Source: Candidatus Multivoradales bacterium
GTDB taxonomy: Bacteria; Acidobacteriota; Thermoanaerobaculia; Multivoradales; Multivoraceae
DNA length: 64,000 bases
Assembly: GCA_965223325.1 (NCBI GenBank)
Contig: CBDCWI010000002.1
Coordinates: 2,496,001 to 2,560,000, forward strand
Direction: 5' to 3'
Notes under the pieces: model-generated
What the model was told of the DNA's origin: nothing
The model's database searches: none
Seen by the model: only the letters and a program-made list of their open reading frames with translations
Program-made: the position numbers and the translations under genes
Shown here: positions 23,592 through 30,189 of the stretch, in pieces
How the letters are laid out: each line of letters begins with the position of its first letter
How positions within the stretch are numbered: position 1 is the stretch's first letter

Positions 23592-24899
<1,308 letters not shown>

Positions 24900-25482
24900 T
24901 GCGGCTCCTACGGGGGGTGGGGGGCGCTTCGCCGATTTCACGGTCGAGCCATCGCCAGAGCTCTGGCAGCCCTTCGCCGGTCTTCGATGAAACGGGAATG
25001 AGAGGAGTGTCGGAAGGGAGTTGGAGGAACTCCCTGAAGGATCGGAGTTTGCGGGACCGCTTGCTCCGTGGGACGCGATCGATCTTGGTTGGGGTGACGC
25101 AGAGGCGCGCCCCAAGATCAAGGAAGTACTCGACAGCCTGCACGTCGAGAGGAGACCCGTCGATCTTAGCATCGATCAGCAGGATCGTCGGCATTCCCGG
25201 CCCGTAGCGCTCAAAGAAGGCTCCGATCACCCGGTCCCACTTCTCGCGCTCGGCATGACTCACCCGGGCATAGCCATAACCCGGCAGGTCGACCACCCAC
25301 ACCTTCTCGTCGATCAGAAAGTAGTTCACCGCCCGCGTCCGGCCCGGAGTCCCGCTCGTGCGAGCCAGCCCCTTCTTCTTCAGCATCTTGTTGATAAGAC
25401 TCGACTTACCAACATTCGATCGGCCCGCAAACGCGACCTTGGGCCGATCATCCCGCACCAGGTCCCCCGGCATGACGGCACT

Positions 25483-26251
25483 GCGCACGAACTCGACATG
25501 CTTGAACCTCATGGAACCCGCCCCACCCGTCGAGTTCGTGCTGCGAGCCCCGAAGGGGCGGGAAAAACAGCGCCCGGGAGCATCCGAAACAATCGCCCAG
25601 CGATCGGATGCGGAGGGCGCACGAACTCGACATGCTTGAACCTCATAGAACCCGCCCCACCCGTCGAGTTCGTGCTGCGAGCCCCGAAGGGGCGGGAAAA
25701 ACAGCGCCCGGGAGCATCCGAAACAATCGCCCAGCGATCGGATGCGGAGGGCGCACGAACTCGACATGCTTGAACCTCATAGAACCCGCCCCACCCGTCG
25801 AGTTCGTGCTGCGAGCCCCGAAGGGGCGGGAAAAACAGCGCCCGGGAGCATCCGAAACAATCGCCCAGCGATCGGATGCGGAGGGCGCACGAACTCGACG
25901 TTCTTGAACTTCATGGCCTTAGCCCACCGATTCCCGTCGAGTTCGTGCTGCGAGCCCCGAAGGGGCGGGAAAAACGGCGCCCGGGAACATCAAAAAAAAA
26001 TCGCCCCGCGATTGGATGTGGAGGGCGCACGAACTCGACGTTCTTGAACTTCATGGCCTTAGCCCACCGATTCCCGTCGAGTTCGTGCTGCGAGCCCCGA
26101 AGGGGCGGGAAAAACGGCGCCCGGGAACATCAAAAAAAAATCGCCCCGCGATTGGATGTGGAGGGCGCACGAACTCGACGTTCTTGAACTTCATGGCCTT
26201 AGCCCACCGATTCCCGTCGAGTTCGTGCTGCGAGCCCCGAAGGGGCGGGAA
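25483..26251. repeat. Tandem array of structured 134/140-bp units, each containing the engB start region
   Basis: Unit starts at 25483, 25617, 25751, 25885, 26025 and 26165 (periods 134,134,134,140,140; last unit partial). Each has a 13-bp inverted repeat GCACGAACTCGAC/GTCGAGTTCGTGC and a GCCCC-GAA-GGGGC hairpin. Confidence 0.97.
25509..26194 (-). other. Chain of five ATGA-overlapping mini-ORFs (47,47,45,45,45 aa)
   Basis: ATGs at 26194, 26054, 25914, 25780 and 25646. Each frame is open to a TGA that overlaps the next ATG; the last overlaps engB ATG 25512. Translation is not demonstrated. Confidence 0.6.
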
Positions 26252-26286
26252 GGTACTGCACTGCCGGCTGACGGGCAGGGCCCCGA

Positions 26287-28692
<2,406 letters not shown>

Positions 28693-28950: not shown

Positions 28951-30189
28951 CTAGCCTGCCTTCTTGTACACCTCGATGGGCTTGCTCCGGCTGAGCACGA
29001 CCTCCTCGTTGATGACGCATTCCTCGATGTCAGCCTGCGACGGAATGTTGTACATGAGGTCGAGCATCAACTCTTCGAGGATGATGCGCAGGCCGCGCGC
29101 ACCGACCTTTCGCTTGACGGCCTGGCGAGCAACCGCCTTGAGCGCATCTTCGGTGAACTTGAGCTTGACGTCCTCGAACTCGAACATCGCTTCGTACTGA
29201 CGCACAAGGCTGTTCTTGGGCTCGGTGAGGATGCGCACCAGGGCGTCCTCGTCGAGCTGCTCGAGAGTCGCGACCACCGGCAGGCGACCGACGAACTCGG
29301 GGATCAAGCCGTAGCGAATGAGATCTTCCGGCAGAGTGTGGCGCAGCAGCTCTCCCTGCATGCGATCCTCTTTGCCCTTGATGTCGGCACCGAAGCCCAT
29401 CACCTTCTTGTTCAAGCGATGCTCGATCTGCTCTTCGAGACCAACGAAGGCACCGCCGCAAATGAAGAGAATGTTGGTGGTGTCGATCTGCAGGAACTCC
29501 TGGTGTGGGTGCTTGCGGCCGCCCTGTGGCGGCACGTTGCACTGGGTGCCCTCGAGAATCTTGAGCAGCGCCTGTTGAACACCTTCGCCTGAGACGTCGC
29601 GCGTGATCGAAGGGTTGTCGCTCTTGCGGCAGATCTTGTCGACCTCGTCGATGTAGACAATGCCGCGCTGGGTCTTGTCCTTGTCGTTTCCGGAGGCCTG
29701 GTAGAGCTTGAGAATGATGTTCTCGACATCTTCGCCGACGTAGCCCGCCTCGGTCAGGGTGGTGGCATCCGCAATGGTGAACGGCACCTGCAGAAGGCGG
29801 GCGAGGGTTTGCGCGAGGAGGGTCTTGCCGGTCCCGGTCGGGCCGACCAGCATGATGTTCGACTTCTGCAGCTCGACCTCGCTGCGGGACGACTCCGAGA
29901 AATCGATGCGCTTGTAGTGGTTGTAGACCGCCACCGCGAGCTTCTTCTTGGCCTGCTCCTGCCCAATGACGTAGTCGTCGAGGAGTCGCTTGATCTCCTT
30001 CGGCTTCGGCAGGCTCGTGTCTTGCTGCTGCTCGAGCATGCGGTCTTCCGCGATGATGTCGAGGCAGATATCGACACACTCGTCACAGATGAAGACCGTC
30101 GGACCAGCGATGAGCTTCTTGACCTCTCGCTGGCTCTTGTTACAGAAGGAGCACCTCAGGGCTTCGTCGCCGGATTCCTTCTTGGGCAT
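28951..30189 (-). CDS. clpX: ATP-dependent Clp protease ATP-binding subunit ClpX
   Basis: CSFCNKS...ICDEC zinc finger, [34 protein letters not shown] loop. Confidence 0.98.

Follow-up and report, generated by a model that had tools for sequence, protein, structure and literature searches.

The closest described counterparts of the element reported here come from mycobacteria. According to the account in PMC2734929, mycobacterial interspersed repetitive units (MIRUs) form a dispersed family with units of 40-100 bp and 41 loci in H37Rv, and the variable-number tandem repeat (VNTR) ETR-F/VNTR3239 of M. tuberculosis ends at the fpg start codon, with a length that is modestly correlated with fpg mRNA. 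At the level of translation, gene pairs with a -4 overlap are presented as coupled by termination-reinitiation in Huber et al. (2019, PMC6728339; 2023, PMC10666635), and a review names RNA unfolding and reinitiation among the conditions for coupling (PMC12548453). Here we describe a tandem array between lon and engB on the minus strand of a 64,000-nucleotide stretch of Candidatus Multivoradales bacterium (Acidobacteriota; GenBank assembly GCA_965223325.1, contig CBDCWI010000002.1, positions 2,496,001 to 2,560,000), which we call the window and to which plain coordinates refer. The array repeats the start of engB, and its copies open a chain of five small open reading frames (mini-ORFs) that ends on the engB start codon. 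The array is probably a tolerated, passively relaying duplication scar: a minisatellite, confined to this locus, that took up the start of engB.

Tandem Repeats Finder (TRF) reports a single array at 25526-26251 with a period of 134, 5.3 copies and 96% matches. Alignment of the units resolves five full units of 140, 140, 134, 134 and 134 nt and a partial unit of 87 nt. The repeat array of a preliminary description made from the sequence is thus real, and its six units are strictly five full units and one partial unit. From lon towards engB, the parts are the following.

26287 to 28692, minus strand: lon (ATP-dependent protease La), the upstream gene, with Pfam domains Lon_C, LON_substr_bdg, AAA and Lon_lid
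26252 to 26286, minus strand: native spacer from the lon stop codon to the partial unit u0, from sequence reading
26165 to 26251, minus strand: u0, partial A-type unit with the T part only, 57-nt leader and engB-like codons 1-10, from the alignment
25885 to 26164, minus strand: u1 (26025-26164) and u2 (25885-26024), identical 140-nt A-type units, a 53-nt E segment (hairpin H1 and T9) followed by an 87-nt T segment, from the alignment
25483 to 25884, minus strand: u3 (25751-25884), u4 (25617-25750) and u5 (25483-25616), 134-nt B-type units, a 52-nt E segment and an 82-nt T segment, from the alignment
24850 to 25512, minus strand: engB (ribosome-biogenesis GTPase), the working gene behind the array, with Pfam domain MMR_HSR1

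The T segment (82 nt in B, 87 nt in A) joins the final 52-57 nt of the engB leader to the AUG and codons 1-10. The E segment (52-53 nt) is a spacer with a hairpin followed by a T-run, which is T9 in A and interrupted in B. Six T and five E segments alternate as T-E-T-E-T-E-T-E-T-E-T, with T at both ends. Units u3 and u4 are identical and u5 differs from them by one base, at position -1; the last 30 nt of u5 are codons 1-10 of the working engB. The B-type copies of the start, which we call decoys, are identical to the real engB start from about -52 to +30. Types A and B differ in four places, namely in the E hairpin, in the stretch of 18 nt that precedes the ATG (with the +5 indel), in codon 2 and in codon 5, and the alignment agrees with the earlier observation that separate +1 and +5 indels sum to +6. 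A 39-nt core and the right stem arm are invariant across the copies. The blocks of identical units among these copies point to recent slippage or unequal exchange.

The first orphan start codon, ATG 26194, is carried by u0 and lies 92 nt past the lon stop, with no overlap. From this ATG, five open frames follow one another to engB, as found in the ORF listing.

26051 to 26194, minus strand: mini-ORF 1, 47 codons, TGA overlapping ATG 26054
25911 to 26054, minus strand: mini-ORF 2, 47 codons, TGA overlapping ATG 25914
25777 to 25914, minus strand: mini-ORF 3, 45 codons, TGA overlapping ATG 25780
25643 to 25780, minus strand: mini-ORF 4, 45 codons, TGA overlapping ATG 25646
25509 to 25646, minus strand: mini-ORF 5, 45 codons, TGA overlapping the engB ATG 25512

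The spacing from ATG to ATG is 140, 140, 134, 134 and 134 nt, each 2 mod 3, and the ATGA overlap of stop and start (-4) is found at 25512-25509 and at the four internal junctions. Between the first ATG and engB, the mini-ORFs tile the 682 nt completely. Coordinates and peptides of the five ATGA-coupled mini-ORFs match the preliminary description letter for letter. A Pfam search with both mini-ORF peptides returned nothing significant (best E = 0.11).

Comparison with relatives indicates which copy of the start is old. EngB is 49-60% identical to EngB of 19 relatives, and because the alignments begin at residue 1 or 2 in 18 of the 19, ATG 25512 should be the true start of the working gene. Lys2 of u0 is shared with 16 of the 19 relatives and its Asn5 with one, while in the working copy Arg2 occurs in three relatives and His5 in none. 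Unit u0 also keeps a native-looking flank after the lon stop. Given this upstream flank and the closer likeness of residues 2 and 5 to the relatives, ATG 26194 probably was the original engB start and has since been orphaned.

The array is real in the sequencing data and not an artefact. We checked it by unitig k-mer depth in three samples (X1-X3) of one study, one of which may be the source of the assembly. The 39-mer assembled in six copies has a depth of 40.2 against 9.2 and 6.0 for the single-copy flanks in X1, 866.7 against 171.2 in X2 and 24.4 against 4.75 in X3. Ordered by assembled multiplicity, words present in six, five, three, two and one copies reach about 5x, 5x, 2.3x, 1.5-1.7x and 1x, and the unique word at the A/B junction stands at single-copy depth in X2 (188.5 vs 171.2). 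All three samples fit 5-6 copies, and no difference in copy number is seen among them. A repeat over-expanded by assembly would be compatible with the finding that no contig of the public runs spans the whole array, and the A-type-specific stretch has little or no contig cover in X2 and X3, a gap that carries no weight either way. Such an artefact is extremely improbable, since the depths in three samples scale with the assembled multiplicity; the two unit types are moreover ordered in blocks.

With MIRUs, the locus shares tandem units between co-directional genes, a repeat-internal ORF whose stop forms a -4 overlap (ATGA) with the start of the gene behind it, and a proposed effect, which is to keep or modulate downstream expression. 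It differs in several respects. The engB unit of 134/140 nt occurs at a single locus, whereas MIRUs are dispersed and measure 40-100 bp. The unit is mostly the host gene's own leader and first ten codons, and the host belongs to the Acidobacteriota, not to the mycobacteria. The first ORF of the engB array starts 92 nt after the lon stop and does not overlap it; in MIRUs, the ORF is said, from the work of Supply and colleagues in 1997, to overlap the stop codon of the upstream gene as well. The preliminary label of a MIRU-like repeat thus stands for the layout and the -4 coupling, and falls short in dispersal, upstream-stop overlap and phylum. The idea of a host-gene-derived unit applies to the 82-87-nt T part with its leader and ten engB codons; for the E part, no source was found.

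The other comparisons place the array between several classes. Like the fpg VNTR, it ends at a start codon. Same-strand ATGA overlaps in a row recall the termination-reinitiation pairs, and the predicted stem around the downstream start fits the RNA-unfolding model as outlined in PMC12548453. Here, the upstream "genes" would be throw-away copies of the engB start instead of functional partners. The head-to-tail copies with 96-100% identity are typical of minisatellites or VNTRs, and the array is one of 88 in this genome; the difference is that it overlaps the start of an essential gene. As to variation in copy number, the three samples of one study all fit 5-6 copies, and no other strain was found. 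Miniature inverted-repeat transposable elements (MITEs) and repetitive extragenic palindromic (REP) elements differ from it, since neither E nor the unit has a second copy and the inverted repeats are internal, not terminal. As for intrinsic terminators, each full unit gives one consensus hit, five in all, and the stems are short, at 5-6 pairs. Literature on tandem repeats in Acidobacteria or on VNTRs with upstream ORFs yielded no such arrays, which is not proof of none in print.

The array itself is far beyond chance; its open frames are not. Acidobacterial engB genes start with NTGA in 28 of 32 cases because codon 2 is Lys or Arg, and by this comparison the ATGA start is an inherited, ancestral property of engB. 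After dinucleotide shuffling, the ATG frame is free of stops in 3596 of 5000 sequences (72%) for the B unit and in 3155 of 5000 (63%) for the A unit. Across its three sense frames the B unit contains one stop triplet, the one within ATGA. The relay would follow automatically from the NTGA start, a period of 2 mod 3 and a G+C-rich unit that is nearly without stop triplets. The antisense strand of the array carries a five-step TTGA relay of its own. Genome-wide, relays of at least three steps occur as 17 chains in 14 of the 88 arrays, on one or both strands; 11 of these 14 (engB and ten others) have a period of 2 mod 3, which is shared by 39 arrays in all. The G+C content at third codon positions (GC3) in the mini-ORF frame is 0.64/0.65, below the gene-calling cut-off of 0.72, so that there is no coding signature. 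The residual coincidences are the period of 2 mod 3 and the A/B length difference of 6 nt, divisible by three, each about one in three, and the A units are the distal ones, where the frame matters least. The earlier suggestion that selection acts on the coupling is not borne out by the ancestral NTGA, the share of open frames among the shuffles, the antisense relay, the ten further relay arrays and a GC3 that is not gene-like.

Two side observations concern the same frames. The engB frame is open for 85 codons upstream of its ATG, up to ATG 25767 in u3, which gives a formal ORF of 305 codons (24850-25767, minus strand) and is a further sign that all frames of the array are nearly stop-free. 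At 25608-26483, the array is crossed in antisense, on the plus strand, by four ATG-started ORFs of 99-155 codons that overlap one another.

With a period of at least 40 and at least 85% matches, TRF finds the 88 arrays mentioned above, 78 of them intergenic by crude calls; all counts by gene context rest on these GC3-based ORF calls with the cut-off of 0.72. Forty-two of the 88 make up a single family, with 2-7 copies of related units of 84-360 nt, for example at C1:774474-775750 (L031) and C2:4069494-4070713 (L032). In this family, 26 arrays lie between convergent genes and none between divergent genes, and two of its arrays searched against Rfam gave no match. Several long "ORFs" that start inside arrays looked non-coding by eye and were dropped. 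In the clustering of the 88 arrays, the engB array is a singleton, and two other singletons also copy the start of an essential gene, tmk and rpsE. A census at lower TRF thresholds (802 repeats) found no gene-start array beyond tmk and rpsE, under criteria that miss arrays which TRF ends before the ATG, as it does at engB.

The tmk array (G000:C2:3846150-3846474; L029 251-575) has a period of 98 in 3.3 copies with 99% identity, and its unit combines roughly the first ten codons of thymidylate kinase with a 71-nt filler that occurs nowhere else. A relay forms here as well: the decoy ORFs stop at the TGA of a GTGA that lies 6 nt inside the ATG-GTC-GTG start. The rpsE array (G000:C2:2441451-2441955; L030 652-1156) lies in a ribosomal-protein operon with a period of 161 in three copies. 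There, the old ATG stands 24 nt past the rplR stop, and after 11 nt its frame is interrupted by a hairpin-rich insert, unique to this locus, with a 16-nt direct repeat on its flanks. The later units contain 19 rpsE codons each, and their 21-codon decoy ORFs stop at TAG, so that no relay is formed. By its sequence, the rpsE array is the clearest case of an insertion. All three arrays leave the real start unobstructed. This is likely by chance, and three gene-start cases prove little.

The engB unit is confined to its locus. Searches of the unit and its parts against the own genome of 6.69 Mb (blastn and blastn-short) returned this locus only, apart from chance words of 13-23 nt, so the question raised in the preliminary description, whether the unit also sits at other gene starts, is answered in the negative for this genome. 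Among 40 relatives, matches are confined to the coding part of engB, with nothing upstream of the ATG, and an exact 26-nt core of the unit has no hit in genome and metagenome collections. Metagenomes yielded two distant fragments as the only EngB relatives, and no close one. The order lon-engB is kept in 18 of 19 relatives' loci, and none of the 19 lon-engB loci carries an array with a period of at least 40. A same-genus spacer shares only a 13-14-nt match with the unit; 9 of 500 and 55 of 500 shuffles did as well.

Wider sampling of 80 acidobacterial lon loci gave engB downstream in 65 and repeats with a period of at least 25 in five. Only one of these five was inspected, a locus from a metagenome-assembled genome (MAG) of the Terriglobales (L103 2952-3201), where a 122-nt unit is repeated twice downstream of lon at a contig end, with no engB start by eye; the start of this unit is presumably similar to the 5' part of a tRNA. 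As a separate observation, two relatives show small tandem duplications of the last lon codons and the stop (L024 1273-1332, 16 nt in 3.8 copies; L020 1768-1805, 20 nt in 1.9 copies). Duplications at gene boundaries thus occur in relatives too.

The origin of E bears on a further explanation. The native spacer shows no significant similarity to E, the lon-proximal flank offers no better match than chance (641 and 825 of 1000 shuffles score equally well), and nothing elsewhere in the genome qualifies as a source. One could imagine E as a small MIRU- or MITE-like hairpin element whose insertion just within engB caused a target duplication, followed by amplification. The T-E-T layout with its non-integer copy number has the expected form, the rpsE locus with its native spacer, old ATG and hairpin insert between 16-nt direct repeats looks like a parallel, and MIRUs insert at start codons according to the review PMC12548453. 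The fillers of engB, tmk and rpsE are nevertheless each restricted to a single locus and resemble neither each other nor any other array, and a "target" of 82-87 nt is far beyond usual target-site duplications. A mobile E is weakened by the lack of dispersed copies, and we regard it as decidedly improbable.

Three hairpins are predicted in the unit, given here with their coordinates in u5.

25485 to 25541, minus strand: H3, perfect 13-bp stem around a 31-nt loop in which the engB AUG and the G-rich tract lie; engB codons 6-10 form the right arm; present in every unit, from the inverted-repeat search
25547 to 25559, minus strand: H2, leader hairpin with a UUCG loop on a 5-bp G+C stem, without change across the six copies, from fold and alignment
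25580 to 25611, minus strand: H1, hairpin of the E segment with an 8-bp outer stem, from inverted-repeat search, alignment and folds

Folded alone, H3 reaches -30.4 kcal/mol. The predicted probability of being unpaired is 0.93 for the AUG (B type) and 0.01 for +16 to +30, which are thus paired. In A-type H1, two G-C pairs are replaced by A-T through double changes, and the T9 run follows; B units contain an 8-nt C-tract complementary to the G-tract. For whole units, the folding energies are not unusual against shuffles (z = -1.22 and -0.97). In a related genus (L014, L016, L017, L019, L021, L025), the engB start codon lies in the 5-nt loop of a short GGACC/GGTCC stem, and a hairpin around the engB start may be a family trait.

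A scan for the terminator consensus finds five sites on the sense strand, one per full unit, where shuffles give a mean of 1.8. In the A units, these hairpins lie at 26153-26139 and 26013-25999, each with a 6-bp stem followed by T9. The array could accordingly be read as an attenuator at the transcript level, in which one weak terminator-like hairpin with T-run per unit damps read-through from lon and the ORFs are incidental or only counter termination. In favor of this reading, a scan for sigma-70-like promoters in the lon-engB spacer gave no site, so that engB may depend on read-through from lon. The stems are short, however, with 5-6 pairs of which three are G-C, the T-run of the B type is interrupted, and the folding of the whole unit is not unusual. 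An essential gene behind five terminators would also starve. We consider this reading very unlikely.

The duplication scar, which we favor, would operate as follows. The sixth copy of T, joined to the rest of engB, would do the work. With an NTGA start, a unit of 2 mod 3 and few stops, each orphan ORF would run to the UGA in the next AUGA. A transcript that enters engB from a point ahead of the last unit would always carry at least one decoy initiation region, and if transcribed, the mini-ORFs are likely to be translated, since the B decoys are identical to the engB start from about -52 to +30. The decoy starts would then yield throw-away peptides of 45-47 residues. A ribosome on one mini-ORF would melt the left stem arm around the next AUG, terminate at -4 on that AUG and could reinitiate there. 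Translationally, the array would be transparent and could be tolerated ahead of an essential gene without starving it. Transcription, translation and reinitiation of the array, and the order of events, are what we infer from the sequence.

Several points weigh against this picture. No source for E is found in the flank or elsewhere in the genome. Both unit types keep the frame despite two indels, and all three gene-start arrays (engB, tmk, rpsE) have a period of 2 mod 3. Of the arrays between co-directional genes that do not belong to the large family, 14 of 23 share this period (binomial P = 0.006; 0.012 without engB), against 7 of 17 elsewhere. The co-directional excess could be a frame filter that a neutral origin does not foresee. 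The full set of arrays also shows an excess between convergent genes (17 of 36), and 37 of the 78 intergenic arrays have a period of 2 mod 3. One co-directional relay array, on inspection, follows a stop codon and contains no copy of a gene start. Finally, the three read samples come from one study and possibly include the source of the assembly.

The same points on frame and period favor a translational relay under selection, in which selection keeps the frame and the ATGA coupling, and the number of copies sets how strongly engB and the overlapping rho are translated. This would account for the gap-free tiling by mini-ORFs, for the position of each AUG in the loop of a predicted -30 kcal/mol stem that an upstream ribosome would melt, and for the similar relay at tmk; a precedent for tuning is the correlation of fpg VNTR length with fpg mRNA level given in PMC2734929. 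Against selection, arithmetic suffices, as the open shuffles, the antisense relay and the ten other relay arrays indicate. The NTGA start is ancestral, the A units lie distally, the mini-ORFs have no coding signature and the rpsE array has no relay. No copy-number variant appears in the three samples, and the independent events number only two or three. A selected relay is therefore unlikely in our judgment.

We give similarly little credence to a more speculative variant. Here, an unknown process would place locus-specific hairpin fillers inside the starts of essential genes (engB, tmk, rpsE), each start being rebuilt by copying, and only those inserts would survive that let the orphan ORF stop on or before the rebuilt start. 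The arrays would expand and contract, with copy number setting how many ribosomes reach engB and rho, and the system would be a non-mobile, host-gene-derived counterpart of MIRUs under real frame selection. For the preliminary description as a whole, the architecture and the analogy to MIRUs hold; selection is not supported, and neither, as far as the sequence can tell, is tuning.

On the minus strand, the genes stand in the order clpX, lon, the 774-nt spacer, engB and rho. The outer two are listed here.

28951 to 30189, minus strand: clpX
23592 to 24898, minus strand: rho, with Pfam domains Rho_N, Rho_RNA_bind and ATP-synt_ab

The best relatives of Lon are found in Thermoanaerobaculia and other Acidobacteriota MAGs, with at most 78% identity. 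The probable start of rho is ATG 24898, with AGGAG ahead of it, so that rho overlaps the final 48 nt or so of engB (24850-24898, minus strand). The gene engB itself lacks a canonical GGAGG and has only a G-rich tract. Rfam covariance models gave no match at E <= 1 in 24800-26700. A Rho loading site is expected to show a C-rich, G-poor bias. The C/G ratio on the sense strand is 0.98, which shows no such bias.

What the array means depends on whether the relay works. If it is functional, duplicating a gene's own start in tandem would be enough to rebuild and extend translational coupling, and a cell would survive with a minisatellite in the path by which essential genes (engB-rho, tmk, rpsE) are expressed. 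The locus would then also be a natural test bed for models of coupling by reinitiation and RNA unfolding. If it is only a scar, the lesson is one of caution: either strand of a G+C-rich array with a period of 2 mod 3 would generate chains of ATGA-linked mini-ORFs by itself, and such chains should not be taken for design. Either way, 88 arrays with large units, 42 of them in one family, make this genome remarkable.

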